Source: Marsupella aquatica (Eukaryota > Plantae > Marchantiophyta). From it: DNA of 64,000 nucleotides. The stretch spans positions 9,801,660-9,865,659 of the forward strand of contig OZ316893.1 of NCBI GenBank assembly GCA_973895155.1, read 5' to 3'. The position numbers and the translations under genes were made by a program. The notes below the pieces were generated by a model. The model was not told the origin of the DNA and did no database searches. It saw only the letters and a program-made list of their open reading frames with translations. Of this stretch, positions 1-29,690 are shown piece by piece. Each line of letters begins with the position of its first letter. The stretch's first letter is position 1.

Positions 1-6
1 GATATC

Positions 7-52
7 ATTTGTGCCCATGCTTGGAGCCTCGGCTCGGCGTGGGGTATTTCAC
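7..52 (+). repeat. Left subterminal repeat of the hAT element, inverted relative to the copies at 13218-13543
   Basis: ATTTGTGCCCATGCTTGGAGCCTCGGCTCGGCGTGGGGTATTTCAC vs revcomp of 13218-13263 ATTTGTGCTCATGCTTGGAGTTTAGACTCGGCATGGGATATTTCAC; the core matches the ~13510 copy at 24/26. Confidence 0.85.
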
Positions 53-292
53 AAGAGTTATCTTTCCCCTTTGCAGTTGTTACATTCACAATAATAATAA
101 TGAATGAAAAAAAACAAATATATCTCGTGACTATCCCGTGACCCTCCCGTGACAAGGTGTACCACGCATGATTTTCCAGGAGTTCCTATTGCAGCTTGGT
201 TGTACACACTGCATCAGTACCTCGCCTCCCAGCCAATACGCATCGTAAGTTTCTACTCCTTTTGATACTCTTTGTTCTGGTGTCGCGGGAAC

Positions 293-1939
293 ATGGCCAA
301 CCCGGATGTAGGTGTAGAATATAGGCAGTTGATGGAGGTGATGAGTACCATGCTGAGCGATGGATTGGAACCAGATGCGAATGCCCTGAATGCCTTGAGG
401 AATGCGCACAAAATCTTAGGGTTTAGTAGAAAAGCCAAAATAGCAGGGAAGCGAAAACAAAGAGGAGGGGCTGCTCAAACAACCATCGACAAAATGTGTT
501 ATTGGCCATTTGGAAGGATATAGTATATCCCTACACCCAACCGGAACAGTATGAGCATGATAGGTTTGAAAGGAAGTATACCTTACATGGAGAACAGGGA
601 TACAAAAACTTTCAAAATGACATGGTGCGTTGCATGCGCCAAACCGTAGAGAAGGAAGAGCACATGACACGAGAACAGATTCAGCAATTTCAACGCGAGG
701 CTGAGAAGCCTCAAGGATTTGTTGAGCAATTGGCACTGAACTTGGTTGTGAACCTGTGGGACAAGTTGGTAGCCAATTTGGGGGGGCTGAGTCCATATTC
801 CTTGGAAATCCTGCCCTCCATAGACACAAAAGAGAATTGTGTCTAAAATGGAGCAATGAGTTAGGAATGGCCAGAACATAAAGTAATGTCAAATATGCAA
901 ATAAGGTCATGCAATTTGGGGAGCTTGGTGTTGAAGGGCACCAAAGAGGTACAAGACCATCACGTGTTGTTCCAGCAGTAAGGAGTATTCACTTTTTGAG
1001 GATGGAACAAGTGAAGAATTTATATCGCATTGGGAGTGGCAGCCAAGGGCAGGTGTTCTTGTGCCATATCTTGGATTGCCCACTCATTCCTCGAAATGTG
1101 AAGCTAGTGGCAAAAAGATTCAAAGATGGAGATCGGCACAAGAGGATAAAAGATGCGTTACAAGAAGTGCTAATGGGGGGTTTGAATCATAAGAGAGTTA
1201 TTGGGGCCTTGGCAATGACCATCGAATTTCCACCCAAACTTATCTATGATTTTTACAATGGAGGTGACTTGGGAAGCTTCATGGATAAGTGTGGAAAATG
1301 GGGTAAAAGCAAGGGGAAGTCACAAGGGAATGTGCAGGTTGATGTGAGATTCATATCCGAGAAGAAAATATTTTTGGAGCATCGCTTGGGGATTGCTTTG
1401 GCTTTGTTGGAGACCTTACAGTTTCTCCACAAGCACGATCGACTACATTGTGATCTTCATTTTGGAAATGTCTTACTTCACTTTGATCACGAGGATGATG
1501 TTGCTATCAGAGTGTATGTAGAAATTTATGATTTTGGGTTATCCAAGCACAAAACACAATGTACATTACCAGAGAATCGAATGTGGTCCACCCAAGTGAG
1601 AAAGTTATTGCCTATCAAAGACAATACCCTCAATTGGCACCAGAGCTTGTTGGACCTGACCCAGCAGAGTATAGTGAAGCAACTGATATCTATGCTCTAG
1701 GCAATTTGTTCGAGACTTTACTCACAGAAAACTGGGATGGAATGGGGCCAAGCACACGATTTTTGATGGCAGGTTGGAATACTAGAGTGTATGGTCCAAA
1801 ATTAGAGAATATCATTCGTGACATGATGGCCACTGATCCTACCAAAAGAATGGATTGTGCCCATTGGAGTTTGAGGATGGTTCGCACATTTCAAGAGTGT
1901 AGATTGTTGACCCAAAATAGTGTTTATTTGAGAGATTAA
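293..1939 (+). pseudogene. Disrupted intron-less protein kinase (TKL-like, non-RD) with an N-terminal extension
   Basis: Kinase motifs IGSGSQGQV, LVAKRF, LQEV, HCDLHFGN and YDFG lie in ORF 909-1700; LAPEL, DIYALG and DPTKRM lie in ORF 1559-1939, implying a frameshift near 1575. ORFs 272-523 and 496-846 probably join by frameshifts plus one TAA (N-terminal join is inference). Confidence 0.8.
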
Positions 1940-2100
1940 ATTAGTTTTCACCATTATCTTCTCTCAATTACCACATGAACAATCACATGTTCATCATGTG
2001 GTATAAATTGAAATTTTTATATCATCTCATAAAACTTTTTATTTTTGGTGAATGTTGCAATGAATGCTAAATATTTGTTTTTATTGTAAATCTTGCAAGG

Positions 2101-3969
2101 ATGGGAAAATGGAACTTGAGTTCAGATGAGGATGATGAGGCCAATCGTGTATATGATCCTAAAATGCAAGATGGTCAAGGGTCTTACTTGGACCACGAAA
2201 ATTACAGTTTTCACGACGTCCACAAACTTCCAGCAACTCAGACGAAGGAGGAGTCCAAACCCAATGTGCAATGGAATATCCTCACACCCGATGTGAAACC
2301 TCCTCACACGGAATGGCCAATCAACGCCAAAGAATTGGAAATATTGATGCCTAGGGAGGCTTTTCAAAAATTTGCCAAAATGATTTTTCGCGATGAGGAA
2401 ATGTGGGGCACAAAGTCTTGGTTGCAAGATAAGTTTACTATGTCGAAGGTGACACATGAAGAGGTGAAGCAGCACTGGGCACAACGTTACAGGGAATTTG
2501 CTCCAAGAAAAGCGCAAGGGAAAACGAGTTCAGTATATACTCCTTTTATCCGACTATTGATTGCTGAATTCATCCTGAGGTGGAAAGTGGATTACTGATG
2601 GGAGACGGACGAAGGCAAGTTTGTGCATAATGTTCACTCGAAAGTCTTTTCCACCACAAGTGACAGGAATAAAATGCCTGTGACTACCAACAAAGGCTCC
2701 AAGCAAAAAATAGATGAAGTGCACAAGGTGCATACAAATGAGAGCCAAAAAATGACTGCAATCCCACAGTTCTTTACAAAATCTGAAAGCAGTGCCGCTT
2801 GTATCAAAGAAGGAAAAAGCACTACGACAACAACAAACGTTTCTATTGGTCCAAGTAGCACCTTACCAACAAACAACACGGGTGTTTTGGATGCCAACAA
2901 GGGAACTCCTTGCATGCAAAGTGTCTGCAAGGGGTTGGGATGTGAGATTGGTGATTTTATTGAGAAAATTCTTCGCGTCAATTACCGTCTCGAACTTTGT
3001 GACGCTGGTAGCATTGACTACTATGCGTCAAAACTAAAAGAGAGTGATTTGAAGATGAAATCACTAGAGAAGATGTCTATTTCATCGGGTACCAATTGTG
3101 AGGTCCAAGACATGTACCGATACAAGGCCCAATTGTTTGACAAGATGGAAGAAATTGAGAGGCTTCGAAGTCAAGTTGCCGAAAATGAAAGGCAATCCAA
3201 TGAACAAGCGCAACTTCAAGAAAATAGAGTCATAAAGAATCTGAAGGATGAAGTTGCATCACAAAAGCTCATCATCACAAATCTCCAAGAAGAGATAGAC
3301 CAAATGAACAATTCTGATATGGACAATGAATCGAGCAAAGGAAAATCAAAATTGAACAATGTCAATTTTATGAATTTTCAGATGATTGATCCTACATTAG
3401 AATCTAACCTTTTTCCTGATGTGGAGGTCGATTCGGTAGCAGTCGAGGAGTATTTTGATAAATGGAAGAAAGATGAAAGTATGGCTGAATTTGTTCGACA
3501 AAAGGGTGCAAGGTGTCCTTGGTGTTTATATCCATGGGGCCCAGAATCAGTTTCCATTCTGGGAACTTGCGGACATTTATGGCATCATGCTTGCTTATTC
3601 AGGTGGATGAAGAAGAGTCGAAAATGTTGGTGTAGGAAACCATTTCATGAACGGGAGTATGAGCAACGAGGATTGTTGAATCAAATCCCACCAATGGAGA
3701 CACAACAAGACGATGAAGAGATGACTCAAGACGGTGTGGCGATGACGGAAATAGATTCCACACCCATTGAAAACTTTACAATCAATGAGTACAATCTGTC
3801 AGATGGTGACTTTGACAAGTTGTTATTCAGTGGTCGTTTCAATGAATGGAAAGAGTATGCTCAGTCCAATCAACCAACTACCAACGAGCAAAACATGCAA
3901 CGATCTATTCGTCGTCATCGGCGACGTCAGCAACAAGCAGAAGTGAAAGCGGAAATGACCATGCATTGA
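2101..3969 (+). pseudogene. Coiled-coil + RING-H2-like protein (putative E3 ligase) with one in-frame TGA at 2596-2598
   Basis: ORFs 2101-2598 and 2623-3969 share a frame. Heptad-rich segment KAQLFDKMEEIERLRSQV...LQEEIDQM; RING CPWC-x14-CGHLWHHAC-x10-CWC. Confidence 0.75.
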
Positions 3970-4423
3970 GAGAGGAAGATACCAAAATATTTGTTATTTG
4001 CATATTCATACATTTTTGATCATGTAGTGTACGCTTACCTAGTTGTACTATACACATTTTCTATAGTATCGGCCGCATAGGATAGTTTCTAGATATTAGA
4101 TCATATTATTCATATATAGTACCGGCTGCACCACAGAGATTTTCATGGGCATGTCCTTCAAAGTTGAAAACATTTTTACTTCATTTTTACACTCGGTGAA
4201 TCTTTTGCGTGGAGATATGAATTCAGTGATTGCTGCTATAATATGGTGATTATTTCAAAAAAATACGTTCAAATATAGAACACTCTAAAAATTGTAATCG
4301 ACGATACAATCGCAAGCAAGAGTAAAACCAAGCACCAAAGCCATTGAAAGTGGGAAAAAAATATGTATTATACTTCAAAAATTACAATTGACATATATCA
4401 TCTTGTAGTAATCACAAAACATA

Positions 4424-5171
4424 TCAAGGCTGTGAGGAGTAATCCCTCGTCATATTGTTCTGATTTCGTTGCATGAGTCCATCAAATTCATGATGTCGAT
4501 TGGCCCATGGAAATGGGTAACGATTATGCGAATCGTCATTGTCATGAGATTGTTGAACGACACGAGCAGGCGTGTATGATGGGTATGGGTTCGTGACATT
4601 GACTGCTGGAGTAACTGTTTGTCCCCACTGTGCATCATTATGTAGTGTTCGGCGTTGTAGTTGATCATGTTGTGCATAAAAGGCAGAAGTAGTTCCCTCC
4701 AAATGATGCTCTGGTATGTCACTTCCTTGTTGAAATGCATATGAAGTACTTGCTAGGTGATCACGATGGACATTCAATCCTGGAAAAGTGAAACATGGGT
4801 TTGGTTGGGAATGCATATCAAAGCCTGTATGCAATGAGTACTCCTCATCATCTTGGACTTGAGACTTGTCAATCGTAGGAAACATCAAGTAATCAGTATC
4901 ATCCTCCCATTCACCCGCATTACTATCCTCAGTATCCGGTGGAATACGAGTCAATACCTCACTATCACATTGCAATGACAATCCTTGCAACGCCTCATCG
5001 GTGTCATCAATTGTATCAAAATCATCGACATCTTCCTCCCCCTGACCCCCACTTCTTGCATCATGCTCCTCGTTCTGGAAGGCTTCAGTGGGGGATGATC
5101 TAGGTGCATCATTTCTTGCTCTTCTTTCATCATAACGTTTGTAGAGGAACATTTGGGGGTTTCGGACCTTT
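4424..5171 (-). pseudogene. 3' part of the hAT transposase (acidic/low-complexity C-terminal tail), cut off by the copia insertion
   Basis: Removing the copia and one GTAAG copy joins ...TRVEKGL-T-KVRNPQMFLYKRYDE... in frame into ORF 4424-5152. Confidence 0.85.
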
Positions 5172-5176
5172 GTAAG

Positions 5177-5323
5177 TGTTATAACCCATAATATGACTTA
5201 ACCCTAGTATAGGATAGGTTAACATTAACCCAACCATGTTAACCCTTCTGGACTATATAAGTCCTTGGCATAATGGAAGTGAGTGGGGATTATTGACTAC
5301 TATCATCTTGTGTATTCATAACA
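5177..5323 (+). repeat. 5' LTR of copia element 1
   Basis: 147 bp, identical to 10821-10967; TATATAA at 5254-5260. Confidence 0.97.
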
Positions 5324-5338
5324 CGTTATCAGCGCGAC
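5324..5338 (+). promoter_or_regulatory. Primer-binding site (half-tRNA-Ile type)
   Basis: CGTTATCAGCGCGAC directly abuts the LTR and is complementary to the anticodon arm of plant cytosolic tRNA-Ile(AAU) (GUCGUGCUAAUAACG, recalled sequence). Confidence 0.8.
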
Positions 5339-5867
5339 TTGCTCAATTACATTTTTTTTATGTGCTCCCTCCCCAAAATCTGACAACTCAATAGATCGAG
5401 GTCCACACAAAGAAAACAACACAATGTTGTGTGTTTTTTGCTCTAATGGCGAGAATAACCGCCTAACTACCTCCCGAGAAAAGAGAAAACAAGCTTATGA
5501 TCGAAGAACAAAGAACTGGCCATAGAGCGTCGAGCCTAATCACGAGCGAAGATTCTCAACCTTGAACGAAGGAGACAACGCGACGAGACGCAAAAAACAA
5601 AATAAAAGACATTGGCGAAAACTGAAAACTTTGAGGACCGCACACAAGGACATACGAACGAACCCCATCGGGGACAATTTGGATGCGATTCAAGGGGCAG
5701 ATGAGTCCCGTGCCTTGAGCGAAAGGATCGCTATCGTTTCTCTTTCTTTTGGTTAACTTGATCCATCACAACAGCCGATCGATCGGGCGGGACAAGGCGA
5801 AAGTCATAGGCATTTGATACAAAGGAACACCATATATTTATAAGGCCCAAAATCAGGCGAAATAGGC

Positions 5868-8800
5868 ATGGCAACATTGGAGAAGTTACATTTCCCAGCC
5901 CTACTAGTAGACGGCAGCAACTACTTGACATGGGCCGTAGATGCGGAAACATACTTCGCATCGTTGGAGCTTGAAGATACATTAATCACAGACCAAAATC
6001 TGACTCTACAACAGAAGGCCAAGGCCGTGTTCCTTTTGCGCCAGCACTTGGTTCCCTCACTAAAATCCCAATACATGAACGAAGTCAATCCACGACTCCT
6101 ATGGGACAAGTTAAAGGCCCGATTCGACCATATGCGCGAAATATGGCTTCCTGAGGCTCGCCGCGATTGGTACAACCTACGAGTGATGGATCATACTTCC
6201 ATTGCTAACTACAACAGCGCTCTATTTAAAATTACCTCTCAACTAGAACTCTGCGGCCATCCAGTCCCAGACGCAGATAAGATCGACAAGACACTGAGTA
6301 CATTCCCCGAATCAAACATTGCACTCGGTACACAGTACCGAAATATGCAATTCACCACATATTCAGATCTTATCGCACATTTACTTGTAGAAGAGAAGCA
6401 ACAGGTGGTCGCCATGCAAAACGCCCGAAAAAGACCTGCGGGAACAGAACCACCACCACACAAACCAGAGATAAATTACTATCAGCGAGATAACATGGGA
6501 CGAGGCCGACCAAGAGGCAGAGGCGGATACCAAGGCAGAGGTAGAAACCAATCCTACAGAGGTCGAGGATATCGACAATCATACAACACAAGAGGCAGGG
6601 GAGTAGGCGGCAGAGGCAGGATGAGTGATAATGCATCGGACAACACCAAAGATGACAGGATGTGCTACCGATGCGGAAAAATAGGACACCTGAAGAAAAA
6701 TTGTTGGGCATCGGACCAAACAGCCAGGAAACATACAGAATCAAGAGCTAGACTCAAACAAAACCCAGCAGGGAACTACATGGAGCTAGAAGAAGCAATA
6801 GCCACCTACAAAGACCCCGAACAACCTCATGAAGTGGAGACCCACATAGTAACTCCAGCAAGAGGACCCTACACACTACAAGACCCCAATCTGGGCATAA
6901 TTGACAGCGGTACGTCTCATACAATACTAAAGGACAAGAAATATTTCCACTCAATTACCCCATCAGCCCGGCATATGACCACCATTTCAGGCACAAACCA
7001 GATTGAGGAGGGTAAAGGCACAGCCACGGTAATATTCCCAGGAGGCACTGCACTCGCCATCGAAGCAGCGATATTCGCCCCGCGAGCTACAAGGAACCTC
7101 ATCAGCTTCCGAGACATAGTCGCAAATAAATATCAACTGCGCACAGTGAAAACAGACGAGGAAGATACCCTCCAAATCGTGGAGGTTACCGAACAAGGTA
7201 TACATATTAAAGAAACCTTACCCCTTATACCACCAGGCCTCTACGCAACTCAAATTCAAGCTCACTATGTCACTACAGACTTACCTGATATCACATACTT
7301 ATGGCACTGTCGACTGGGACACCCCGGAGTAAATATGTACCGCAGAATTATTCATGACTCCCGTGGAATCCCCCAAGGAGTCAACCCATCAACAAAACAA
7401 AGGCAATGCCTGGCGTGCTCTCAGGGGAAGCTGATTACACGCCCACAAATACAGAAGACAATCTATGCCATCCCGAACTTCCTGGAACACCTGAACGCAG
7501 ATGTATGCGGCCCGATCCACCCACCAAGTGGACCGTTTAAGTATTTCCTGGCCATCATCGACTCTTCGACCAAATGGCTGCAAGTATCTCTACTCTCTAC
7601 ACGCAACTTGGTCTTCGCTAGGATACTGGCCAACATTCTAAAGCTTAAAGCACAATTCCCAGAACATCCAATTCGGAAACTGAGAGTGGATGGTGCAGGG
7701 GAATTCACCTCAAAAGCATTCGATGAGTTTTGCTGGGCAGCGGGCATTGACACTGAATACTCAGTCCCATATGTCCATTTCCAAAACGGAATGGCAGAAT
7801 CCGTTATCAAGCGTATACAGATGATAACCAGACCCCTGTTAATGAATTCAAAGTTACCCCTATCCACATGGGGACACGCAGTCCTCCATGCTGCCACACT
7901 GCTTCAATACAGACCATCGGCGTTCAACACAAAGACTCCACACCACTTAGCGTTCGGACTACCTCCAGACCTGTCACACCTGCGGGTATTTGGATGCAAA
8001 GTCATGGTCCCAATACTGGGACCCAAGCGTACAAAAATCGGACCTCAAAGACAAGAAGGAATCTACATCGGAAATGACTCATCCTCGATCATTCGCTACC
8101 TGGAACCGACAACAGCCGATGTGTTTAAGGCCAGACATACAGATTGTCATTTTTACGAAGACACTTTTCCCACCCTAAGCATAGACAAACAAATGACAGG
8201 GGACTTGCACCCACACCAGATCAACTGGAACAGCAGAAACTTACTCAACCAGGACCCGAGGACGAAACAAACGGATGCAGAAGTTAGACGATTACTCCAC
8301 CTCCACGAGATGCTGGATAAGATCCCAGATGCATTTAATGATGCAGCAAATGTTACAAAATCCCACAACGAGGCAACCAATGTACCAGCCAGAGTACAAA
8401 TGAATACTCCTCCAGCAACAGTAGCTGCCCCTAAGGCGAAAAGAGGTAGGCCACCAGGATCACATGATACCCGACCCCGCCAAAGACGCCCCCATCAGGT
8501 AATTCCTGAAACTACTTTTCACTTCATTAATAATGAATCCGAGACACCAGACATATCGGGTAATGAGGAGATGTCAATTCAGTATAAGCATACAGGACAA
8601 ATTTACACGAGACAAAACACTACTGTCGACGAACAATTTGCTTACCATATAGCTCAAGAAATAACCAATGATACTTCGGACCCTTTAACAATCAAAGAAG
8701 CACAAACAAGGTCAGATTGGCCACACTAGAAAGAGGCCATTGACACAGAAATGGATGCACTAATCCGTCGACAAGTCTTCGGACCAGTCAAACAAGTTGA

Positions 8801-10481
8801 TCCTAACAATGACTATACAGACAGCCGATTTACGTTCATTAAAAAGCGAAATGCAAAAGGTGATGTTATCAGATACAGAGCGCGGTTAGTAGCAAAAGGA
8901 TACACCCAGATCCCAGGCAGGGACTATGATCTAACATATTCACCAGTAATGGACGTGACGACATTCAGGTATTTAATTGCTTTCTCTCGCAAACACCAGT
9001 TATGCAATATCCTTATGGACGTAGTAACGGCATACCTATATGGAGTCTTAGACTCCGAAATTCATATGAAAGCACCAAAGGAATTACTCGAAAGAGTGGC
9101 AGAACACATTCAGGGGAAGCAATACCCGAACCTGAGCAAGGATATGAAGTCGGGAATTGACCAGATTATCCCTAATGATGATTGTAAAGGCCTTGTGTTG
9201 AGCAGTGGCAACACACAGAAAGCACCACTCCAGTACCCCGGAAAACGAAGGACTGGACAGCAGGCATTTGCTGTGCAAGTATTGAAATCCATAAACGGCC
9301 TGAAACAAAGCGGCCGTATATGGTACCAGAAATTTAAAACCGAAATACAAGCACTCGGATTTATTACAGAAGACATAGCGCCCTGTATATTCATCAAAAG
9401 AGTAGACACAGAGTTCGTCGTGTTAGCGCTATATGTCGATGACATTAATCTCTTCGGTACACAACGACTATTACGACAAACAATCAACACAATGAAGGGC
9501 ATTTTTGAGATGAAAGAACTGGGAGAACCGACTTACTGCCTCGGCCTTCAGTTCGATCACCTACAGACAGGCACATTCATTAGCCAGTCTACCTATACAA
9601 ACAAAATCCTCCAACAATTCAATATGCAAAAGGCATACCCGGTATCAACACCAATGGAGCTGAGATCCTTAGACACTGCGAAGGACATGTTCAGGCAAAG
9701 ACAGGACAACGAACCAATACTAGATTCAGATAAGCCATACTTATCGGCTATCGGAGCCCTCCTTTACCTGGCCAACAACACCCGACCGGATATATCCTTT
9801 GCAGTGAGCCTCCTCGCACGACATAGCGCGCACCCGACAATACGCCACTGGAACGGCATAAAACGAGTATTCCGATACCTCCAAGGAACAATTGACATGG
9901 GACTATTCTTCCCCAACGAAAGCGAGGATGAACTTACAGGATACGCGGACGCTGGATACCTCTCAGACCCCCAAGATTCAAAATCGCAGACAGGATACGT
10001 CTTCTTGCAGGGTAAAACCGCCATATCTTGGAGAAGCACGAAGCAGAGCCTAACCACAACGTCATCGAATCACGCCGAAGTAATTGCCCTCTATGAGGCA
10101 TGCCGCGAAGCGATTTGGCTCCGTAGTATAATCACACATATACTCAAACAGACAGGAAAAACCTTACTCACAAATCCAACCACCATCTACGAGGACAATA
10201 GGGCATGCGTCGACCAGATAGTTACAGGCTACATGAAGACCGATCGAACCAAGCACATAGACCCGAAATTTTTCTTTACGCACGAACACAGCGGAAAGCA
10301 AATACAAGTAAAGTGGATAAGCTCACAAGACAATTGCGCCGACCTCTTCACCAAGCCGCTACCAGCGACTACACATCGAAAGCACGTCAGCGCCATTGGA
10401 ATGCATCGTCTCTCCTCCCTAACCTCCTCGACTAACGACAACTCCCGACACGAACACACAGCCAACGCAAAATCGAAGTAG
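5868..10481 (+). pseudogene. Copia gag-pol polyprotein with a single in-frame TAG (8727-8729)
   Basis: Zn knuckle CYRCGKIGHLKKNC, protease IIDSGTSH, LWHCRLGHPG, integrase D/D/E (NADVCG, RVDGAGEF, NGMAES), RT LYVDD, RNase H GYADAGY and IYEDN. The two ORFs are in frame across WPH*KEAI. Confidence 0.92.
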
Positions 10482-10811
10482 AACCTCGACAAACTACTAA
10501 ATCGTAGTATCTAACGAACAGTTTACAGAGAGACACATGTTCCCCCGTCATGAATACAATACTACCCAGACTAGAGTAACAAATAAACGCTTACTTACTC
10601 TTAGCCCACTGGCTTAGACAGTAATAGGCTACTTTTAGACTTAGAGCATACACATTAGAGACTTTCTGAATTAGGGACCACAAATTGTAATGATGGTAGT
10701 ACTCTTCCTTGAGAGGAAAGCAGCAAGGTTTGATGAGGCTACATCATAAGTGACTCCCACTTTTAAACTAGGGTTAAATGTGTGGTTCCTTGACACCCCG
10801 TCCAAGTAACC

Positions 10812-10820
10812 AAGGGGAAG
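10812..10820 (+). promoter_or_regulatory. 3' polypurine tract
   Basis: AAGGGGAAG immediately before the 3' LTR. Confidence 0.9.
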
Positions 10821-10967
10821 TGTTATAACCCATAATATGACTTAACCCTAGTATAGGATAGGTTAACATTAACCCAACCATGTTAACCCTTCTGGACTAT
10901 ATAAGTCCTTGGCATAATGGAAGTGAGTGGGGATTATTGACTACTATCATCTTGTGTATTCATAACA
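10821..10967 (+). repeat. 3' LTR of copia element 1
   Basis: Identical to the 5' LTR and followed by TSD GTAAG. Confidence 0.97.
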
Positions 10968-13099
10968 GTAAGTCCTTTTTCCACTCGCGTATTCGTGAAT
11001 ACAAAGACTAAATCTTTTGCCCGATCATTGGTCAACCTGTTACGAATTTTTGAATGTATAAATCCATACGAACTCCAATTCCGTTCGCATGATGATGCGC
11101 ACATTTGTTGGTGAGTGATTTTCCTAGCTATGATCCTTAGATCCTTGTAATCAGCTCCATATGCATGCCACCACTCTCCCGGACTGAAATTTTCAATATT
11201 TGCTTGGGCTCCTCTTATGCCAACAGATGTGTTTGGCAATTTCTTTTGAGCCTCAAATGCCTGCTTTTGGATGTCAGAAATAAGTTTAGTGACATCACGA
11301 TCATGGTTGATCCCTGGCTTCACACTGTGTTCTGCGTATCTCGCAACATAATCATTGAAGCCTCTACATAGCTCAGCATCTCCGCCCACATCTTCGTCTT
11401 CATCAAAGAAATAATGAGGATTCAAATATGCTGCAGCTAGCATGAAATCGTTAGTAAGCGATTTCCTTTGATCCATATACACTTTCCTTATCCTTGGTTT
11501 CAGGTACTCAGTTACTAAGGAACATTCTTCCATGCTCGCCTCCAGATCAACAATCCCCTTTTTCAAGCTCCAATACAACCAAGCTGACTGCGGCGAGTCC
11601 CCATCAAATTCACGTAGCATCTTCACCAATGGTGTGAAAAAAGTTATTGTAGAACTCACTTGAGCCCAAAATGCATCTTGTTGAATCCATTGCTTCAGTT
11701 CGTCTGCCTTTGCTCTCGTCATGTGCCCGTCCGACCTTGAGTGACCTGGAAGCCTATCACGATAAAGATGCCATTTGTCATCAATGACCATTTCTTGCAA
11801 GGGACCTCTTAGCTCCAATGCTCTTTGCGCCATTAAGAAATTGGTCGCAAATCTTGTTGCATTTGGATTCAACAATTTTCTGTAGGCAGATTTTCGAACA
11901 AAAATTGCGGAGAGTTTTTGGGATGATGAAACTGCTTTTACTATCCACCTCAAACGTTTGAAAATGAATTTGAATGGATTCCGTCCACTTTCATCTACCA
12001 CAATTTTCTTATGGCCACACATGTCTTCTAGTAACAAATTAAACACGTGGGCAGCGCACCAGCTCCAAGTAACATGCGGATATTTTTGCATCACTATATC
12101 TTCACCTCCAACTCGATTAGCGGGTGCACCGTCGGTTACAATTTGTATGATGTGATCCGCGCCAATTTTGTCTATATATTTCAGCCACATCTCTCCAAGG
12201 TATCTTCCATCTTTCTTATCAGCTTGTGCAGCATTCCAACTATCCAAGAAAATATCTCCTCTACAAGTCAACAACATGACATTCATCAAGGGTTCTCTTC
12301 GGATATTTTCCCATCCATCTGATGAAAGGGTATATCCAAAAGGTTTGGCCTCCTTCATGGTTTTTGTCATGTCTTTTGCAACATCAGCTTTGACCTCCTC
12401 CAACAATTTGAATCGGAGGTTTCGCATACTAGGAAGAGAATACCCATTAACAATTCCTTTAGAAGTCTCTGCAACTGCTTCTCGAAATAATGGATTCTCT
12501 GAGACATTGAACGGAATACCACTTGAGTAAAAAGCTTTTGCCCACAGCTTATCCAAATGTGATCTATTTGGAATTTGATAAGCATCTATAATAGGGTTTG
12601 AAATACTTGATGCCCTAGCCGCATTACTCATGTTTGGATTCTACTCCACGTCAACATGATTGGAGCCTCGAGTTGAAGCTTGCGAATTTGTCGTTTGGAT
12701 AAACGATCTCCGACCTCTGGCAGACAATAGTATATGACTTCCATCGCTTCGTTTGTACCTAATAGAAGAGTCCACTTTGATCACATTGTACATTCTATTG
12801 ATGTCATCCAATTCGATGACACCATAGAGTCCTAGGCAAGGTGGTGCATCCCCTTTGTATATATTTCCCATCAAATGTGCCCTTGCTCGTGTTGCATGGA
12901 ACGTAGTATATTTTTTGCAAAATCGGCATTTTCAATACATAAGATTGATGTCATGACAGCTTGACGGAGAGTCACATCGATCAAAATATTTCCATACCGG
13001 GGAAAATTTTGCACTACGTTCTCGCGCCGGATTTCGACCTTGTCTAACAGGAGTTGAATGGGCTGATAAGTCACCTGACTCATCTTCATCTGAAGACAT
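10968..13099 (-). pseudogene. hAT transposase, 5' part (BED zinc finger, DUF659/RNase H-like DDE core, hATC dimerization domain)
   Basis: One frame from ATG 13099: VWKYF...Y*KCRFCKK...RARAHL (BED, TGA at 12932-12934), TAG at 12641-12643, then SSDGW, VTDGA, WCAAH, TRFATNF, EWW, ASSCERNWS, RNRL. Confidence 0.92.
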
Positions 13100-13217
13100 G
13101 GTCGAAAACAATGAAGTACTAACTCACAAATAAGTGTGAAATGCCTTCACTCAACCAAAAAATAGTTTTATTTTTGTTTTGAAAGTAACGACTTGGAAAC
13201 AGGAAGATAAAACATTA

Positions 13218-13543
13218 GTGAAATATCCCATGCCGAGTCTAAACTCCAAGCATGAGCACAAATATTTACTTTTGTTTTAAGTCATTCACTTTCCTATCCG
13301 ACGTATGTGCTATCTATAATTTAACGGTAATTTGCTAATAGAGTGAAAAAAATTTCGGTGAATTACGATAACCATGCAAAATATCACACGTCGAGCCGAA
13401 GCTCCAAACATGCGTACATGAACACGTCTATCGTTATAATTGTATCACAAAACTCACAAATATCATTAAATTGATAAGGGAGATTTGAAAATTTCTGCAC
13501 GAAATGCCACACGCCGAGCCGAAGCTCCAAACATGCGCGTACA
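13218..13543. repeat. Three copies of a subterminal motif upstream of the transposase
   Basis: Core CACGCCGAGCCGAAGCTCCAAACATG, with variants at about 13229, 13388 and 13510. Confidence 0.85.
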
Positions 13544-13759
13544 AAAGTCATTCTTGCTCCCTCCTTTAGACCTATGAGCTTCCATTGGAATACAAGTTTC
13601 AAAGAATGAATAAATGAACATGTGATGACCCTTTTTATACAAGTGTTGAGTAATGGCCTATGGGGCATTCATCCTATGTTAGAGTAACCTCTATTTCACT
13701 AACCCTAACGATAGCCGGCCCTAAAACTTTCCCCGGCCCTTAAAGTTAACGGGAAAATC

Positions 13760-14430
13760 GCCCCGGACCGAACTCCCCGCCCCGGTCCCGGCCCGGTCTC
13801 TTCCCCCGGCCCGGCCCCACATCCCGCCCGGTCCCTTCCCCTTCCCGGCCCGGTCCCTTCCTCTCCCCGGCCCTTCCCCTCCCCGGCCCTGCCCCTCCCA
13901 TTCCCGGCCCCTACCATTCCCGGCCCTGCCTCTTCCATTCCCGGCCCTGTCCCTTCCCGGCCAGGCCCCGCATCCCGCCCGGTCCCTTCCCTTCCCCTTC
14001 CCGGCCCGGCCCCTTCCATTCCCGGCCCTGTCCCTTCCCGGCCCGGCCCCGCATCCCGTTCCCGGCCCGGTCCCTTCTCGTTCCCGGCCCGGTCCCTTCC
14101 CGGCCCGGCCCTGCCCGGCCCTGCCCCTTCCCGGCCCGGCCCCTCCCATTCCCGGCCCTCCCATTCCCGGCCCTGCCCATTCCGTTCCTGGCCCAGTCCC
14201 TTCCCAGCCCGGCCCTGCCCCTTCCCGGCCCTGCCCCTTCCCGGCCCGGCCCTGCTCCTTCCATTCCCGGCCCTCCCATTCCCGGCCCTGCCCATTCCAC
14301 TCCCGGCCCATTCCATTCCCTGCCCTTCCATTCCCGGCCCATTCCCGGCCCTGCCCTTCCATTCCCGGCCCTGCCCCTTCCCGGCCCGGTCCCGCATCCC
14401 GCCCGGCCCCGCACTCGGCCCGCCCTCACC
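13760..14430. repeat. GC-rich subterminal array (CCCGGCCC / CCATTCCCGGCCC units) at the right end of the hAT
   Basis: Dozens of CCCGGCC units in one orientation; plant hAT ends typically carry such transposase-binding arrays. Confidence 0.85.
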
Positions 14431-14575
14431 TAGTGTTTGTGAGGCCGGGCGGGATGCGGGGCCGGGCCGGGAAGGGACCGGGCCGAGCCGGGTGCCGGAC
14501 CGAGCCGGGAATGGAAGGGGCCGGGATTAGTCGGGGAGGGAATGGGCCGGGCCGGGCCGGGGCCGGACCGGGGCA
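14431..14575 (+). mobile_element. Second hAT-like terminus (TAGTGTTTGTGAGGCCGGGCGGG...) with GGCCGGG units in the opposite orientation
   Basis: Starts with TAGTGTT, typical of hAT TIRs, and uses the same repeat units as 13760-14430 but inverted. No partner end was found downstream. Confidence 0.6.
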
Positions 14576-16375
14576 TAAGAAGGAATATGCGACAAATAGG
14601 GTCATTTTCGGGCAACAAATGACAAGTTGTCGTTGTCGTGTCCGACAACACGACAAGTTGTCCGACAGCTCAAACCGGGGTTCAATGGGGCTTGCCTAGG
14701 GAGTGATGCCTCCCCAGTACTAAAATAAAGGCAGGTAGGGTCAATCATTAATCTCTTTTGGAATAAAATTGCCTGTTTGGTCAATCAATTATGTAAAGCA
14801 GGCATTTGGTCCAATTCTTTACTCCTCCCAATCACTGCGGTAAAGATTCCTCGGCCCCCAAAACAATAAAAAAACATGTTCCCAATCATGTTTTGTGGAT
14901 GTTGAATCAGCGGGAGCCAAAGATTCCCTATCGTAAGTTCTGGCAGAACCATCTGAACCGTCGTCCACTAACATTACGAACGGCGTCGATCCCAGATTCG
15001 TTTCAGATATTCTCATTATTTCGATACTCGTGATACTCAACAACCAATGACTGCATGGCAAGCAACCTTACTGATCCGTTTCGGCCCGGGCCAGCGGGCC
15101 CCACAGAGAAATTCGGGCCCAGATTCTGGAGCGCTCTCATCGTAGCCGTACATCGTCTGGAAACACGGTCAAACTAGAACATGGTTCTTTTTCGAGTATT
15201 GTATCGTTTTAGAGTAGTGTTTCTCCTCTTTTCGAGATTATTGTTTGTCGTCTCTCTTGACCTTTTTGCTTTACTCCATTATACTTTGTTGCATTTTTTA
15301 GCAAATTGGTACTTTTTCCTGTCTTGCAACTTGCTTTCTTTGTTTTCTAGGGGTATTTCTTTTGCTCGGAGTGTAAAAGCAACGATATTTCCAATTATTT
15401 TATTTATTTTCTCTCATATTAAATTTAGATCATGTAATGAGTGGAAACAGGGGCAACGGGCAGAACTACTGTAGGGCCATTCAAGCATAGTATCTGTCAA
15501 TCCTATCCTATATGGCCAGGAGTGGGACCACGTAATTGTTGACGTGGATTGCTTGTGTCTAGAATTTTAGAATATTCTAGTCGTGGTATATAAACTTTGG
15601 CTATTTCAATCAAAAATTTGCATTAATTAAATTTTATTCCAAAGTTCGTTGGTCTGGAGTTTTAGGACTACATTAGTGGTGCTCCAAGTTGCTTGGTGAG
15701 AATAGTCACCGCCTCCACTTCTTGTAAAGCCAACCTTCGTGTAAAGAATTCCTTGCGGGATTCCTTGGGCAGAAGATTAGTCAGTTAAGTCGATCTATTG
15801 ATTTATTTAATACCAAAGGTTGTGGTAGGAGAAGGTACTTAGAAATTGAATGATGTCATGTGGCTTAAAGCTCATTGAGATTGAACTCGTGAATGACTTA
15901 GTGGCCTTGAATCTTATACAGAGCACTTTTTATGCTGACAACACTCAATAGCTTGAGATGGATGCCAAAGTCCTGAATGATTACCCAAGAATAAAGTTAC
16001 AGTAGGTGTCCCCTTACACATTGTGGCTTCACACAATGTGTGACAAAGTACTTGACTAGAATAAATACACATTTGGATTTCCAACACAAAATAATATTTG
16101 CGTGACCAGATGACTGTAACCATCAAGGATTTATATGGTTTTCTTTTCCTTTCTTTATCAGTTGCTTTGTAGCGCCTGTAGTAAGTTCTTGAGTTGGAGC
16201 ACTTTTATTCGGTCCAGTTAGACTTGACTGTAAAATTGTAAGGTCACACAAGAATCCACGTTATCTTCTTTATGCTATGCCAGTCGATACATAAAAGCAA
16301 GGGTCTATATAATGTACCTTTTGTTTGCTCTTCCCCATATCCTTCTTGCCCTTTCTTTAATTGGCCATGTATCTA

Positions 16376-16723
16376 TCAAATGAGAAAATTGAGGACAATC
16401 GTTGAGCATGTACCAACAATCCATGTACTTGGTCTCCTTTCAAATGGGATATCTCTGGCTTTCATGAGTAGATATCGCATTGCAAACAACACTCTCAGAT
16501 CTTCTACATTGGAATACAACACAACAAATTTAGTGATATCATGTTTCAAGTCTCCCCATTTGCTCTCCAAAGATCTAGCTCCTCTCTCCTGGGTGTCTTT
16601 AGGTGTGTGCTGATTGTAGTTTGAAGCAACACTATCCCAAAAAGCTTGGTTCTTTTGCCCTGCACCAATATTAGGGTTTTGTCCAATGTTCACCCAGGAC
16701 ACACACAACTGCTTCAACTTCAC
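16376..16723 (-). pseudogene. Myb/SANT-like (NAM-associated-type) DNA-binding protein fragment of a PIF/Harbinger-like element
   Basis: QLCVSWVNIGQNPNIGAGQKNQAFWDSV...RSLESKWGDLKHDITKF matches the LCxxW...G..Q....FW...SL..RW..I...KF pattern. Element boundaries were not resolved. Confidence 0.65.
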
Positions 16724-18904
16724 TTATGAGAAATTTTGCTGTTGAGAAATTTTGCCGTGAGCACCATTTGCTGCCATTGTGTCATAATCACACAACAGAG
16801 AGCTTGAGAATGTGGCCAGGCAAGCAAGTATGCACACTGCACAATGCAAAAGCAAGGGAAAATCTGCGCTCAAGTTCTATGTGTGAAGAGGAGATCCTGC
16901 AACATTGAATATGAACAAGAACTGAGACCATCCCGTTGTGTTTGAGCCGACACATGAAATCTCCACAAATGGATATTGGCCATTGCTCAGAGATAGTATT
17001 GAGTATAGACGACATTCACAACGATAAGCCTATGAACCATCCAACAAACAAGTAGTTGACACAAAGAGATATGTGGTCCACCTCAGCTGAGGCTACATCC
17101 ACGGGAACACACAAGAGCTTTACTGCACTCTAGGCTCGTCGACCATACCAAGTCTTCGTAATACAAGTTCTCCCTATCTCTCAAGTGGCTCCGTAATAAT
17201 GAGTGTGAGTTCTTGCTATCCAAGCAAACACCATTTGTGATATAGTGGACAACTTAGTTAACCTAACCTAGTCTGCAACTAAGGTCGGCCCTAACTATGG
17301 TTACAATCATTACCCTAGATCAAGAGTAAATGTCTAATAGATGACGGGCAGGTCAAAGTCTAGTTCTCACCCATTTCTGGAGTGTAGGAGCGCCATGCAA
17401 GACTCTAAAAAGAAGCAAGCCCATGTGACCCATTTATTTATAGCGGAGTCTGATGGGAAAGGGTGTTGGCTCCAACATGCCACACCCATCCCAACTGGTC
17501 AGTTTATTAGGGTGTGTCAACTAATTTGAAATTAAATTACAATGCAGGACATACAGTGCTTTTACTACCAGGAGAAAATGGCTACAAGTTACCAAAATAC
17601 ATACCCCATAAGGATGATATATCCAAAATTTCACAAGAGTAAGAATGACTTTGCTTATCTGAGTACTTTTTGACAGGCCATATTTGGGAGAGCTCTAAGG
17701 CACAAGTAGGAGGGCTCTAAGGCATGGTCCATAGCCCCTGTCTATAATTGCACATCAAAATGTGATAATATAAGGTGTACATTCACTCATTTAAAAGAAA
17801 CTATTGAAGTTTATCATGATATAGGTTTATCACGGTGTGGAGTCATGTAGTAAACCATATAGGTCATATTTTGATGATTTCTTTTTGTCTTGTAGTGATC
17901 TAAAAGTAAATAAAATATGAGAGCATAACTAGAAGGATAAAATACATAAGTAAAGTGTCTGCCAAGGAAGCACTCTGACCAATAAGAGTACAGCCAAGTT
18001 TTATGACACAATGATGCTACTATTTGTGCACTTAATTCAATGTGCCTTATGTGTCTTATGAAGGATATTCATTTCAATAAAAATGATAAACTTAGAAACA
18101 AAAAACATGAGGGGAATTGGCAGTATGTGTTTATGTTATTCAGAATCATTTCTTTCACTCATGATAATACTTTGTTCAAGTGGTGGAGAGGTTGGTTTCA
18201 TGTCTAAAAGATCACAGACTTTAAAATTACAAGGGCACTGCCAAAATAAGTTACAAATATTCTAGAATAACCAGAATTAGGGTCTAAAAATTAATTAAAA
18301 ATGTAGACTATACAAAGGCTACCACTTGATAAGGCACATTGAAATAAAAATATATTCACAAAAAATATGAAAAATAGATTCACCATATAATAACTTCCTT
18401 ATGATGCAATTATGGGACTCCATTTGTGTGATTTGGATTATTTGTGTGATTGTGTGTGGATTTGGATTATTTGTGTGATTGGTGTTCCTTCGTGATGTGC
18501 AATTACCGGGACCTCCATAGCCAAATTATTTGTGTGAGTGGCGTTCCTTCGTTCCTGCCTGCTATGCGGGAACACAGACCAAAGGACATCGCAACTCTCG
18601 TATTAAATGCAACGCAAATAGAACAAAACCAGGGTACAGGAGACGGTGTACAGGAGTCGAACAGAGTTGGGCAAAGTGCTGTAGCACAATGGGCAGCGGC
18701 GACAGAGCAGAGGGGAGAAGGGAAACGATCGATCGATGGGATTCAATGTACGCAAGAATCGATTGCACTACGTGGACTGGACTACAGTCGTGTACCGTGC
18801 TGTTCGGAGCGAATGAATGCGAGGCACACTTGTGTTTCGCCTGCCTGCCTGCCTGCCTGCTTCCTTGTGAGCTTGTCTGCAACTCTGCATGACATTGTTC
18901 CTGT

Positions 18905-19193
18905 TCATAACTCGGAAGAGAAGAGAAGAGAAGAGAAAAGAAAAGAAAAGTTGTTCATAACTCGGAAGAGAAGAGAAGAGCAGAGAAAAGAAAAGATTGT
19001 TCTGTACGATCGGTTCATTCAGTGAATCGTCCGAGGCAAAGTGAAGGAGGAGTGGAGAGAAAACATAACTCGGAAGTGAAGAGAAGACAAGAGAAGAGAA
19101 AAGAAAAGAAAAGAAAAGAAAAGAAAAGAAAAGAAACGTTCGGTTCATTCAGTGAATCGTCCGAGGCAAAGTGAAGGAGGAGTGGAGAGAAAA
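18905..19193. repeat. Purine-rich (AAAAG)n tract with a perfect ~53-bp direct duplication
   Basis: CGGTTCATTCAGTGAATCGTCCGAGGCAAAGTGAAGGAGGAGTGGAGAGAAAA at about 19011 and 19141; CATAACTCGGAAG three times. Confidence 0.85.
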
Positions 19194-20277
19194 GCGCAGT
19201 GCAGACGGAAGGGGAGGGGGAGTTATCTGCGAATGAATTGTTGACGAAAGGCCTGGAAACCGAACTGCTCTACACGACAGGTGGCTTGGGCAGGGTGATC
19301 GGGCCGCACGAGACGGGAAGGCGACACGATGCGGGATGGAACGATCGATATCAGAAGACCGGAGGGAGAAGACGGAAGAGGGATCGCTCATCGCTGGTAA
19401 GGTAGGGGAAGGGGAAGGGGAAGGGAAAGGCAAGGCTCGCGTGTGACACTTACAAGGCCGACACGACACGAAAGGGCGCGCGAGGAATCGCCAGTGAGGA
19501 ACGTGAATGAGAAGGAGGGTGATGTTCGTATTTCGTATCATTGGTATATTGTATTGAATAGCAAGAGGAAGGGAAGGGAAGGGAAGGGAAGGGAAGATCG
19601 AGACGAGCAAGAATGAGAAGAGCACGAGGACGAACCAGGATCTGACAAGAAAAATTGCCGAGTTGCTAGTAGAGAAGCGGGCAGACAGAGATCCACCGGG
19701 ATCGGAGCAACGAAGAAAATTCTCCATCGTGCAAGCGATTCGAAACTCAGCGAGCGACATCGCTGACAGGGATGTAGAAGGAAGAAAGTAACACGCGTCA
19801 CCTCGATTTTTGAGAAGTGTTTAGGGTGAGAGTCGTGAAAACTTGCATCCATCTATACGTACTTTAGGAATTGTGCGTATGTTTTCCAGATGTGTTCTCA
19901 TTTGGATGTGGTTCACTAGGAAGCCTCAAACAGTTGATGTCCTGACGTTTTCGGTTTTCCCAGCACCATAGGTATCCAGTGCTTGTTGTCCATGGGGCAT
20001 TGTGCTTTCCATTCCTGAAGTTCTTTCTCTGTGCAGGGGCTGCCCAAGTTCAGTCCAACACGGCAAAATTGCCATAACTGCGGTGATCAATTAGGGTGTG
20101 AAATCCTGGAGAACATTCGTGCAATCCGTTTGAGGTTCTCAAATGGACATGAAATCATTGTCTCCTCCAATCGCGCAAGACACATGGTATGCCTCCGACT
20201 AGGGGGTCTCAGCTGATACTGAAGAGGTCAAGGTCTTAATTAGAAATACAGGTGGGCTCGTCTTGAAGCAGGCAGAT

Positions 20278-23200
20278 ATGGCGGAGGTTTTGGAGGCGAT
20301 GGGATTTCCCAGCGAGTGGTGTGAGAGGGCTCTGAAGAGCGCCTCCGGCTTAGAAACGGCAGTAGATCTACTGCTCCAATGGCAGGCGCATGGGATGCCG
20401 CAATACAATCTCCCTTCGTCAGTAAGACCCTCCTCTTCACCCCCTCGCTCCCCGTCATCAGCAGGAGGGACGAGTGTCTTGCAGTCTACTCAGACTCAGC
20501 AACAGCAAGCCCATGCCCGCGTTGCACCTAGTGGGATGCTGCCAACCCTGAGGCTCCAACCTCCTCCTCCTTCGCCTTTGCCTCCGCCTCCTTCTGAATC
20601 CAACGCCCCTGTCATCAACGAGGAAAGAGGGCAGTCTCCCTCGTCCACTATCTTGCCATCCACCTCGTCAGCCTGCCCTTCCTCTGTAGAGGGTCCGTCA
20701 GGGGTCAACCATCCTTATGATTCGGAATCCCCCTCGGCGTCATTGCCGACAGGGGATGCGGGTTTAAGACATATCCCTCCTACTGGTAGAATTTCTGGCC
20801 CATCAGCGGACAATAACAACAATAATCCGAATCCACCAGGTGGCTTTCGAATGGCAACCACAGGGAATTCCATCGTGGAGGGCGTTGTTTCTCATGGCAC
20901 AGGAAGAGGAGGAGGAGGAGGCGCAGGTTCGAGTAGTAGAACTCCGTATACTGCAGACAATAGCGATGCCGTAGTTCCAGACGCTTACGCTGAGGAACGG
21001 AAGGCTAGGTATGCTGCAGCACGGCGCGCCAAGCAGGTTGGTGCTTCTTATTTCCTCACCAACCTCATTACAAGCATGTATGCTCTGATGTGTCCGACAC
21101 TGTTGTAACTCTGTCAATTCTCGCTCAGTGGATTGATACAGTCTCCTGCCTTTCTTGTGAACATCTGTCTCACTGAATTTGACATAAGCATGGTTGTAGC
21201 AATTATCATCTGTTAAAACAAAAGACCTAGTGTTCACGCTTTTCTATGATTATAATGGATGTGACAAGTATCATCCGTACATAGAAGACCGTAGTGCTCA
21301 TACTTCTAGTCGACTGTAATGAATGGGAAATTCGGTACTGGCATACTTCTAGTCGACCTGTGATGAATGTGAAATTTGGTACTCGCAGTCTTAATTTTAT
21401 GTCGATTCTCGTTTGATGCGGCGAGCAGACCGATTATCTGATGTACTATGCTGAAATGGGTGTAGGAAAAGGAGGAGGAAAAGGCAAGGATCCGGCAGCA
21501 TATGCAGGAAGACATGGCGCTTCGTCGTTTCAGGAATAGCTATCAGTCTCCTCTTCCCGAGGGTGAAAGCAATAAGGCGTCTGCGCCGGCTGTTGTCGCA
21601 GGTTTTAGCTCGTCGCGTGCTGTGTCAAACGATACCGCCGTGGAGCTCCACATCCGGTGTCCGGGGAATCAAAACCTGAAGGCATCATTCACTGCAGGTG
21701 CTTGTGCTTCCTCGGCTTTCGAACTTTTTGAAGTGTCACTTTATGTCTTGTATTATTGTCTCGTCTTTGTGCGTGATGTGGGTAGAACGCCAGCTGAGTG
21801 AATCGTCGAAGTATTTGGATTTGTGCATGGGGAAGCGGTCTACACCCGAATGCATGGTATCCGGAGCTCGATAGGCAGTCTGTGAGTGTGCAGGACTAAC
21901 CATTACAAGGGATGGCCCGGGGCTGCAGACTAATAAACTTCAGTTTAGGGTAGTCGGCATGAATTATCCTTTCACGAGAACAGAGTGTAGTGATCTATAT
22001 CGATTCGTGTCTTGTCAGTAATGTTACACGGTTCCAGCACGTGTGGGAGTGATGGGTTTGATTTTACCATCATCATCTTATCCCGTTTTTCGTTCTTTGT
22101 TAAAATAGCACCTTTGAATGGGACCGAATTGGCCCAAACGAATTCTTCCGTAAGACATTGGTCACATGTCCATGCATGTCCCTTGTACAATTACATTGCT
22201 AACATCTGATGCTTCGGTGAAGTTGCCATGCGTTAAAGAAGTCCTACTGTCGTCTTATCAGTAGAGAAGTGGGTAATATAGTCGGATCAATTGTAAGAGC
22301 CATCTCTCGGTGTAAGTCTTTGGGGTTTGTGTTAGTCTGACAGATTCATGCAGGCTTGGGGTTTCCAGTACTTTCAATTGTGTTCGACTTAGATCGAGTG
22401 GAACCTGTATTTGTAGGTGCCAGTCTAAAAGACGTAAGAACTTATGTCGATCATGAGCTTCAGCAACCACTCAGGGTACTTGGGTCTCAAGATCATTATT
22501 CTGGCCGACGGCCAGGATCTGTTCCATTTTCTGGGCAGTCAGCCCGTCTCTCTTCGGACAGGTTTGTGTCCAAATTTGCTTATATATACTTGGACGCCAA
22601 AATATTTGTTTGCCTTGGAACCGTATGTGGATGAAGCATCACTAGTAAATGATCAGGACGCCAAAATATCGTAATTTGTTTTAAGCGCCCTCCAAGTTAT
22701 GGAGCCCGTTCTATAATTCATTAAAATATTGGTGGGTACAGGCAGGCTGAAAGAGAGTTGTTGCAAGCAGCGCGAGAAAATTTCGAGGTTCAAACAAGCC
22801 GGATATTGGCATCTGCGAAGAGTCTCCGTGACGTCTCTGGAATGCCTCCGAGTTCAAGCGGAGGCACTATTTACTTTTTAATTCCATTTCCTCGCCAAGA
22901 ATTCTTTACAGGTAGTCATCTTCTTTGAAACCAGGAATTTCTAGACTGACCATGAAGCTACGAGGACAATAACAAATTTTGGGGTCCATCTGCTAGAATC
23001 AGCATCCCACAAGCTAACTTCTCCATATATCATTGCAGAATTAGCAATGGAGACAACACTGGCTGAGGCACAATTGGTTCCGAGGGGCACGTTGGTTGTA
23101 CAGTATAGGCAGAGGGAAATAGAAGTAGCGAAGGATGTACAGGTCCATTCAGAAAACAACAGCAGCGACGTAGGTATGGCAAACGTGTCTGGTAGTAGCA

Positions 23201-28596: not shown

Positions 28597-29690
28597 TAGC
28601 CTCCAAGGTTGCAGCCCTTGACCTTGAAAGTGCACTTGTTTGCCAAGAATTCAGCCCTTGCCCTTGAAAGAGCACTTGTTTAGCGGTGAGGGCTGGCTCA
28701 AGATAGGGAGAGGCAGGAAAGTCTGGGTGAGTCCCATGGTTCCATCTTAGGGCCCATTATTTTCAGGACCCTCACATGCCCCCTCACATGCAAGACAGCC
28801 ATTATTAATAAGATTTGATCCAAACTCTTCTACGTGTAAGCTTCGGTTTCTGCACCCTACGAACAAACCCACCAAAGCAAAACCTACACAATTACCAACA
28901 GCAAAAAAAAGGACGAACGTGGATCACATTTGGGAAGACGCCTAAATCGAACCCCTTCCAGAATGAGAATAGTGCGACAATGCGATCTGGATTCTCCAAG
29001 AATAGGATCTGTCACGAATTGAAAAGCTCTTTCATACCCGAGAGCAAATTCATCTGCACTGGAGAATTCTCCATGATTCCATCAACCAGTCGACACCGAC
29101 TGACGCACACGAATGAGCTAATCTCGTAACTGAAAATGGGCGAAACGACACTTTGTTCCCTGCTCTCTCTTTGGCAATTTCATAGCCTCATTATGTAACT
29201 ACTACGACGAAACGAGTGGCTCCAATTGTCGCCTTGCCCGGCTGGTGCCAATTAGCTCCAGGAGATGGCTCGCCTGACCTTGTTGCGTAACAATGACGAG
29301 CCATCGATTGGTTTACGAGAAGTCGGGCAAGGTGTCGTCGATTCTGTAGCCAGCGAGAGTCCCATTGTTGAAAATGCGGAGCCTCTTCATTTTGGTCGGC
29401 CTAAACTGTTCTTCCATTGGTGAATCCCATCGAAACTCATCGGAGGAATTAAGGTTCTTCCTCATCAGCGACGCGGCTACGGTACCATTCTGGCTTGACC
29501 TGACCCATTCTTCCATTGATGAATCCCATCGCAACTCACTATACTCATTAAGGTTCTTCGTCATCAGCACGGCGGTAGGGTACCATGCGGCTGCACGAAA
29601 ACGATTTTCTATCTGGAACGACAGCTCCATCATCCTCCGGGCCGTAGGAAAAGGTAAACTCAGTTGAACGCACGCTACGAAAAGAAAACC

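Follow-up and report, generated by a model that had tools for sequence, protein, structure and literature searches.

Why should a gene for a predicted protein kinase and a gene for a RING-like protein stand next to a hAT transposase gene, with all three enclosed by mirror-image repeats and the first two pointing towards the third? This question is raised by the left part of a 64,000-nucleotide stretch of the genome of the liverwort Marsupella aquatica (contig OZ316893.1, positions 9,801,660 to 9,865,659; referred to as the window). We consider it probable that the locus is a repeated ~10-kb hAT element, decayed in this copy, in which a resident kinase and a predicted RING ligase travel with the transposase and serve the element. 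The architecture alone, i.e., a repeated unit of hAT type that contains three genes, appears highly likely and, given that architecture, a role of the cargo in serving the element is likely as well, if slightly less so. Once an inserted Copia retrotransposon is subtracted, the window contains about 8.6 kb of hAT; together with about 1.2 kb beyond the window, if the left end mirrors the right, the element would measure roughly 10 kb.

The symmetry of the locus is defined by a 46-bp motif at 7-52, which is an inverted copy of 13218-13263 (39/46 identical, with the whole 64-kb window compared). The match lengthens to 7-100 against 13168-13263 (74/96). Controls reach at most 30: for 300 random 46-mers, the best inverted match averaged 25.5 and never exceeded 30, and 300 shuffles peaked at 28. 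Two further copies on the right side, at 13376 (34/46) and 13499 (35/46), identify the motif as a three-copy subterminal repeat; a scan of the window revealed no additional copy scoring above 25/46. Relative to the kinase ATG (293), the left copy ends 241 bp upstream; relative to the transposase ATG (13099), the copy at 13218-13263 begins 119 bp upstream. Subterminal repeats, as expected of a hAT, are found at both ends: the stretch 7-100 is mirrored by 13168-13263 and two more copies, with a CCCGG array on the right whose mirror would fall outside the window (Table 1). A sequence-only reading of this DNA had reported the same motif score, had placed the kinase and RING genes between mirror-image subterminal sequences, facing the transposase, and had noted premature stops in all three genes; the score was reproduced, positions and strands are as claimed, and the in-frame stops number one, one and two in the kinase, RING and transposase genes, respectively.

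Table 1. Features of the hAT locus, numbered from the first letter of the window
Feature	Position	Strand	Basis or detail
Left subterminal repeat, core 7-52	7..100	+	inverted relative to the repeats upstream of the transposase; 39/46 core, 74/96 extended
Intronless kinase pseudogene, ~545 codons	293..1939	+	helical N-terminus of unknown family followed by a TKL-like kinase domain; interrupted by 1 stop and 3 frameshifts
Gene lacking introns; its product has a W-rich, conserved N-terminal region, a predicted coiled coil and, at aa 472-512, a RING-H2-like finger	2101..3969	+	1 stop, at codon 166
Transposase, 3' part, acidic C-terminal tail	4424..5176	-	tblastn of P0011, P0013
Ty1/Copia long terminal repeat (LTR) retrotransposon splitting the transposase	5177..10967	+	identical short LTRs, GTAAG 5-bp duplication, one polyprotein stop
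Transposase, 5' part	10968..13099	-	BED-like C2H2 pattern, DUF659, hAT dimerisation domain; stops at codons 56, 153
Right subterminal repeats, three motif copies (13218, 13376, 13499)	13168..13545	-	sequence self-comparison
GC-rich subterminal array, 46 CCCGG, ending in candidate terminus	13732..14432		from 14432 inward, the terminus is TAGGTGAGG
Oppositely oriented end-like piece (TAGTGTTTGTGAGG and CCGGG array), then hairpin-rich repeat	14431..14682		contig depth, folding

The transposase gene occupies 13099-4424 on the minus strand (959 codons, of which 56 and 153 are stops) and matches the Pfam families DUF659 (E 3e-29) and Dimer_Tnp_hAT (E 2e-9). The catalytic motifs of a hAT transposase can be recognised, with SSDGW at 259, IVTDGA at 320, CAAHV at 348 and ASSCERNWS at 668, and the gene encodes a DDE transposase with a hAT C-terminal dimerisation domain and CxxH. 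The patterns WKYF, CRFC and HATRA are seen at the N-terminus; Pfam BED was not matched in the window pieces, P0011, P0012 or P0039. Stop-free homologs of 801-807 aa are 64-74% identical, and the closest named transposases are those of the leafy liverwort Calypogeia (C.) fissa (79-85% over local matches), while angiosperm relatives reach 23-30%. A tree of 23 rows, i.e., the window and 22 homologs selected by leaving out short fragments and several distant matches, places the window and six others in a 100/100 clade on a long branch (1.81). Scans with the transposase confirmed no locus in viral contigs (0/1) or, with P0012, in prokaryote genomes (0/14).

The kinase gene at 293-1939 matches Pfam PK_Tyr_Ser-Thr (E 1.7e-14). 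It is interrupted by an in-frame stop at 879-881 and by frameshifts near 463-490, 780-800 and 1601, but two stop-free homologs (553 and 540 aa) align colinearly with it from start to stop, with 58-60% identity in the kinase domain. Seven kinase motifs (Gly-rich loop, beta-3 Lys, helix-C Glu, HxD, DFG, APE and helix-F Asp) are retained in P0002, P0003 and P0008, and the catalytic loop reads HCDxH. These sequence features mark the product as a eukaryotic protein kinase, TKL-like, where the assignment to a group is weak, as the nearest solved structure, Roco4, is found at only 41 bits. This distance, combined with the preserved core motifs, argues against recent derivation from a familiar plant kinase. 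Among 1.84 billion representatives, a profile search yielded 15 matches at E<=1e-30 and 52 at E<=1e-10; several matches cover the N-terminal region only, and 10 of the 150 listed were traced to their source (P0050, 68% identical, is outside those 10). An Atlas search with P0003 returned generic kinase clusters, and the AlphaFold model has a mean predicted local distance difference test (pLDDT) score of 35. No locus was confirmed with P0002 in 22 metagenome stretches, nor with the kinase in three viral contigs or in a plasmid scan. Remoter full-length kinases (P0074, P0075, P0076 and P0204), 29-34% identical to that of the window, have a helical N-terminus and an HxDxH loop and suggest that deeper subfamilies may exist.

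In the RING-H2-like finger of the second cargo gene, all eight zinc ligands are kept in 4/4 sequences, the last pair being C-x-C instead of C-x2-C. The zf-RING_2 score of the gene is 25.4 bits, under the 27.3 cut-off, and the finger falls below Pfam cut-offs in 3/3 proteins scanned; with a RING profile, RNF165 and Hrd1 are found at E 3e-4 to 1e-3. Because of the C-x-C ending and the scores below cut-off, E3 ubiquitin ligase activity is only a prediction, and so is the "E3" in the earlier label "RING E3". Homologs include a stop-free full-length protein of 643 aa (44% identical) and a partial one of 354 aa (62%), where the N-terminal region, the eight ligands and the C-terminus are conserved; one kinase homolog and two RING homologs originate from a single run, SRR5450759. 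Five of the seven RING sequence variants among those listed are synonymous. The AlphaFold model has a mean pLDDT of 47, with a single long helix (62-129) near 55-68. An Atlas search with the N-terminal region gave no usable match, and a scan of metagenome contigs with the RING alignment A3 confirmed 0/598. A probable host gene at 20203-26090 (+), seemingly exon-split, combines a weak UBA match with a canonical RING-H2 finger; it is unrelated to the cargo RING gene beyond tblastn E 0.05-0.44, and capture of the cargo from this neighbor was rejected at these values.

Stop-free full-length homologs are thus available for all three genes, at 44-74% identity, which indicates that the cargo does not consist of captured gene scraps. 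A Pack-type element carrying host-gene fragments was likewise rejected, as the transposase is full-length, the cargo is colinear end to end with stop-free homologs and no close cellular parent is among the named matches, which do not cover the host genome itself. With two open reading frames (ORFs) beside the transposase within the mirrored repeats, the locus falls outside the classical single-gene definition of a hAT (Ac, Tam3, hobo).

Repetition of the unit was assessed in public sequencing runs, four of which contain 68-77% of sampled words and one 15%. Contigs of four runs (X1, X2, X3 and X5) were compared over 1-16000 and those of two runs over 12900-15000; X1 matches the flank with 0 differences and is therefore maybe not independent of the window. 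In X3, the depth of near-identical contigs, which when summed is not equivalent to copy number, relative to the unique flank was 9.1x (8-818) and 8.9x (820-1459) on the kinase side, and 6.1x (Copia-free joint), 10.4x (12979-13309) and 6.3x (13515-13777) on the transposase side, with 10/10 bins across 1-5340 at least 13x flank. The Copia-free joint 5171-10968 was found in three of the four runs (X1, X2 and X3), and in these same runs depth is raised in the 455-bp gap between the RING and transposase genes (3969-4424). Contigs also link the motif to the kinase (X1 record 1, X3 record 15) and the transposase start to the motif. In X5, which has a different organism label, depth peaks on the motif bin, on the cores of the kinase and transposase genes and on the two conserved parts of the RING gene, where the peaks are without baseline because the X5 flank is uncovered. 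Raised depth, Copia-free joints and C. fissa transposase pieces on 6 contigs establish a multi-copy, dispersed hAT family; distinct flanks for copies of the window's own subfamily were not seen in the contigs compared. As a separate observation, not counted as evidence, the joint 13422-13498 has a depth of 13.8, the same as that of a kinase contig reaching 624 nt left of base 1, which may hint at additional mirrored motifs.

The Copia element at 5177-10967 (5.8 kb, LTRs of ~150 bp), which the sequence-only reading of this locus does not mention, is a young insertion; near-identical contigs are found at 16-28x flank depth, and X3 contains a contig joining both of its ends. A second, frameshifted Copia at 54022-60137 is 65-67% identical to it in nucleotides and has LTRs that are 99% identical.

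The same contigs bear on the state of sister copies. Four of them have 15, 14, 1 and 1 extra letters relative to the window, sizes that suit repair of the three kinase frameshifts. The kinase stop at 879 is replaced by a sense codon throughout the depth of X2, X3 and X5 and in 67/82 in X1, and the transposase stop at 12934 throughout that of the four runs (the variant list comprised 40 of 2182 rows, which include neither the stop of the RING gene nor the second one of the transposase). From the extra-letter counts and the stops read as sense, it is likely that sister copies carry an intact kinase frame, and as these frames appear intact, function is directly testable.

The candidate hAT-like right end at 14432 opens with TAG. 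The boundary at 14433 that was drawn earlier is uncertain, since repeated DNA extends to about 14682: in each of the two runs compared over 12900-15000, the first single-copy contigs start at 14653, which sets the end of the repeated DNA near 14682. The end-like piece at 14431-14682 stands head to head with the candidate end, and its hairpin-rich part (14604-14674) is very deep (916 vs 17 in X1, 5224 vs 74 in X3; fold z -2.97). This piece may represent the true terminus of the hAT family or a small high-copy element in its own right. Either the hAT may have inserted into a related end, or its real right end may lie further right than 14432.

A number of observations weigh against a single three-gene unit. 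The left terminal inverted repeat and target-site duplication of the hAT fall outside the window, and no loose contig ends at 14432 were found among 12 listed of 150. No contig spans kinase-RING or RING-transposase among 32 listed of 5572 pieces; X1 record 1 ends 15 nt before the RING ATG. In X1, the kinase contig is single-copy (0.8x) and bin 1-534 is at 1.1x flank, compared to 2.7-3.7x for transposase contigs. Two of the 10 traced kinase matches belong to C. fissa protein clusters, with 6 accessions on 5 contigs, one full-length (547 aa) and the other five short pieces or internally gapped, and C. fissa transposases comprise at least 10 accessions on 6 contigs. None of the six kinase accessions adjoins any of the 10 listed transposase accessions (the nearest is 317 apart), the kinases are 52-57% identical to that of the window (kinase domain) vs 66-85% for the transposases, and a RING homolog was not found among C. 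fissa proteins of 250-798 aa. Given this gap in divergence, the C. fissa kinases may belong to another subfamily, with a transposase outside those listed. These six kinases thus lend no support to the expectation that kinase and transposase recur together at independent loci, and no second three-gene locus was read. What stands of the ~10-kb three-gene hAT as first proposed is supported by the mirrored repeats, the raised depth, the Copia-free copies and the stop-free homologs, while its left terminus and target-site duplication lie beyond the window.

Some of these points would also be explained if the kinase and RING genes resided in a hAT-ended unit of their own, non-autonomous or of a related subfamily, that merely adjoins the transposase, with the composite amplified a few times. 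No listed contig crosses 3969-4424, the C. fissa kinases are apart from the listed transposases and in a different divergence class, and hAT-family ends do pile up, e.g., at 14431-14682. Yet, there is no end-like repeat between the RING and transposase genes, the 455-bp gap itself has raised depth in X1, X2 and X3, and the outer motifs face each other like one pair of ends, which together make such a composite improbable. We attach a marginally lower, similarly small probability to a scenario where the architecture is right and the cargo is a passenger, i.e., old captured genes that hitch-hike or aid the host without any role in transposition. Fungal DUF659 hATs passively amplified a histone H3 gene (PMC6710886, in the part available), both cargo genes are dead in the window copy, and the RING finger is below Pfam cut-offs in the three proteins scanned; however, stop-free full-length homologs at 44-62% with catalytic and zinc-binding residues kept imply long selection, and the named matches include no close cellular parent. 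If the kinase and RING genes were instead a pair of liverwort host genes, segmentally duplicated along with a hAT that is there by chance, this would fit depth data that are blind to the difference between transposition and duplication, and a left boundary outside the window. This explanation is very improbable in view of the drop to single-copy depth just past the hAT end, the mirrored motif, the absence of introns in the kinase and RING genes, next to an apparently exon-split host gene at ~20203-26090, and the scatter of kinase copies over 5 C. fissa contigs, with 5/6 short or gapped.

In the favored three-gene hAT, the transposase would bind the subterminal arrays, cut at the termini and paste the unit with an 8-bp duplication, as is typical of hAT biology. 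Both outer genes have the motif upstream of them, in one and the same orientation, so that the two ends are possible inward promoters, and the motif copies there would drive inward transcription. The kinase and RING genes being kept side by side suggests phosphorylation-primed ubiquitination, i.e., the kinase would phosphorylate a target that the RING protein then ubiquitinates. For genes resident on the element, a host silencing or chromatin factor as the target has a little less than an even chance; the transposase itself is a distinctly less probable candidate, and separate targets for the two proteins slightly less probable still. The element would be the likeliest beneficiary, since a gene carried by a mobile unit is kept intact only if it promotes the spread of that unit or benefits the host. 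A more far-reaching proposal is a liverwort hAT clade equipped with a kinase-plus-E3 phospho-degron kit, which marks a silencing factor of the host for destruction or sets the timing of the transposase, and with a kinase family found mainly on transposons. We regard this as rather unlikely; such a cut-and-paste element would fight or tune its host by protein signalling, not DNA binding. If the kinase and RING genes are under selection on a hAT, they would extend the accessory functions of transposons by a new class and add a kinase family that appears not to have been described.

Elsewhere in the window, a relic at 16376-16723 (-) appears to resemble the Myb/SANT ORF of PIF/Harbinger elements, and a GCK-domain host gene is found at 29658-30281 (+; Pfam E 1.7e-26). 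A 52-bp dispersed inverted repeat (87%) occupies 17744-17795 and 53466-53517, and 42359-42463 is a 105-bp palindrome with perfect 29-bp arms. Rfam gave 0 matches over 1-20000.

hATs are the textbook example of DNA transposons with one gene; among known systems, Ac, Tam3 and Tag1 are single-gene elements. The plant DUF659-type hATs, which include the Ac/Tam3 and Tag1 clades (PMC9804982, in the part available), share with the locus described here a DUF659-plus-dimerisation transposase, DDE, CxxH, short GC-rich subterminal arrays and, at its candidate right terminus, a TAG end. In contrast, the present element has two extra full-length genes, would measure about 10 kb and belongs to a separate transposase clade. 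The sequence-only statement that classical hATs encode only a transposase has to be softened, as fungal DUF659 hATs of ~9.5 kb carry histone H3 copies; in Pseudocercospora fijiensis such an element (9.5-9.9 kb) carries histone H3 as a recognisable host gene, which repeat-induced point mutation has inactivated (PMC6710886, in the part available). ToxhAT, a 14-kb hAT, has host-adaptive effector cargo (PMC12506042, in the part available). Non-transposase cargo is common to these fungal hATs and the liverwort element, but here it consists of two signalling genes of orphan families with stop-free, diverged homologs.

By description, the closest analogue appears to be the Oxytricha TBE element, a three-ORF cut-and-paste transposon with an accessory zinc-finger and kinase ORF of unknown function under purifying selection (PMC4724952, in the part available). 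TBE is a Tc1/mariner element of ciliates that combines finger and kinase in one 57-kD protein, whereas here the element is a hAT and the genes are separate; liverworts, with Marchantia as a test host, would offer a tractable plant parallel to this unexplained ORF. In MuDR, mudrA and mudrB are convergent. Accessory ORFs such as mudrB of MuDR and vanB and vanC of VANDAL/Hiun aid integration or counter silencing; these elements are of the Mutator superfamily, and the available part of the source does not describe their accessory proteins as kinase or RING (PMC6446971). A hAT with kinase or RING genes was not found in the full-text literature searched, with most subscription journals and Repbase entries outside its reach. 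Extra ORFs on DNA transposons are known already from Mutator, TBE and fungal hATs.

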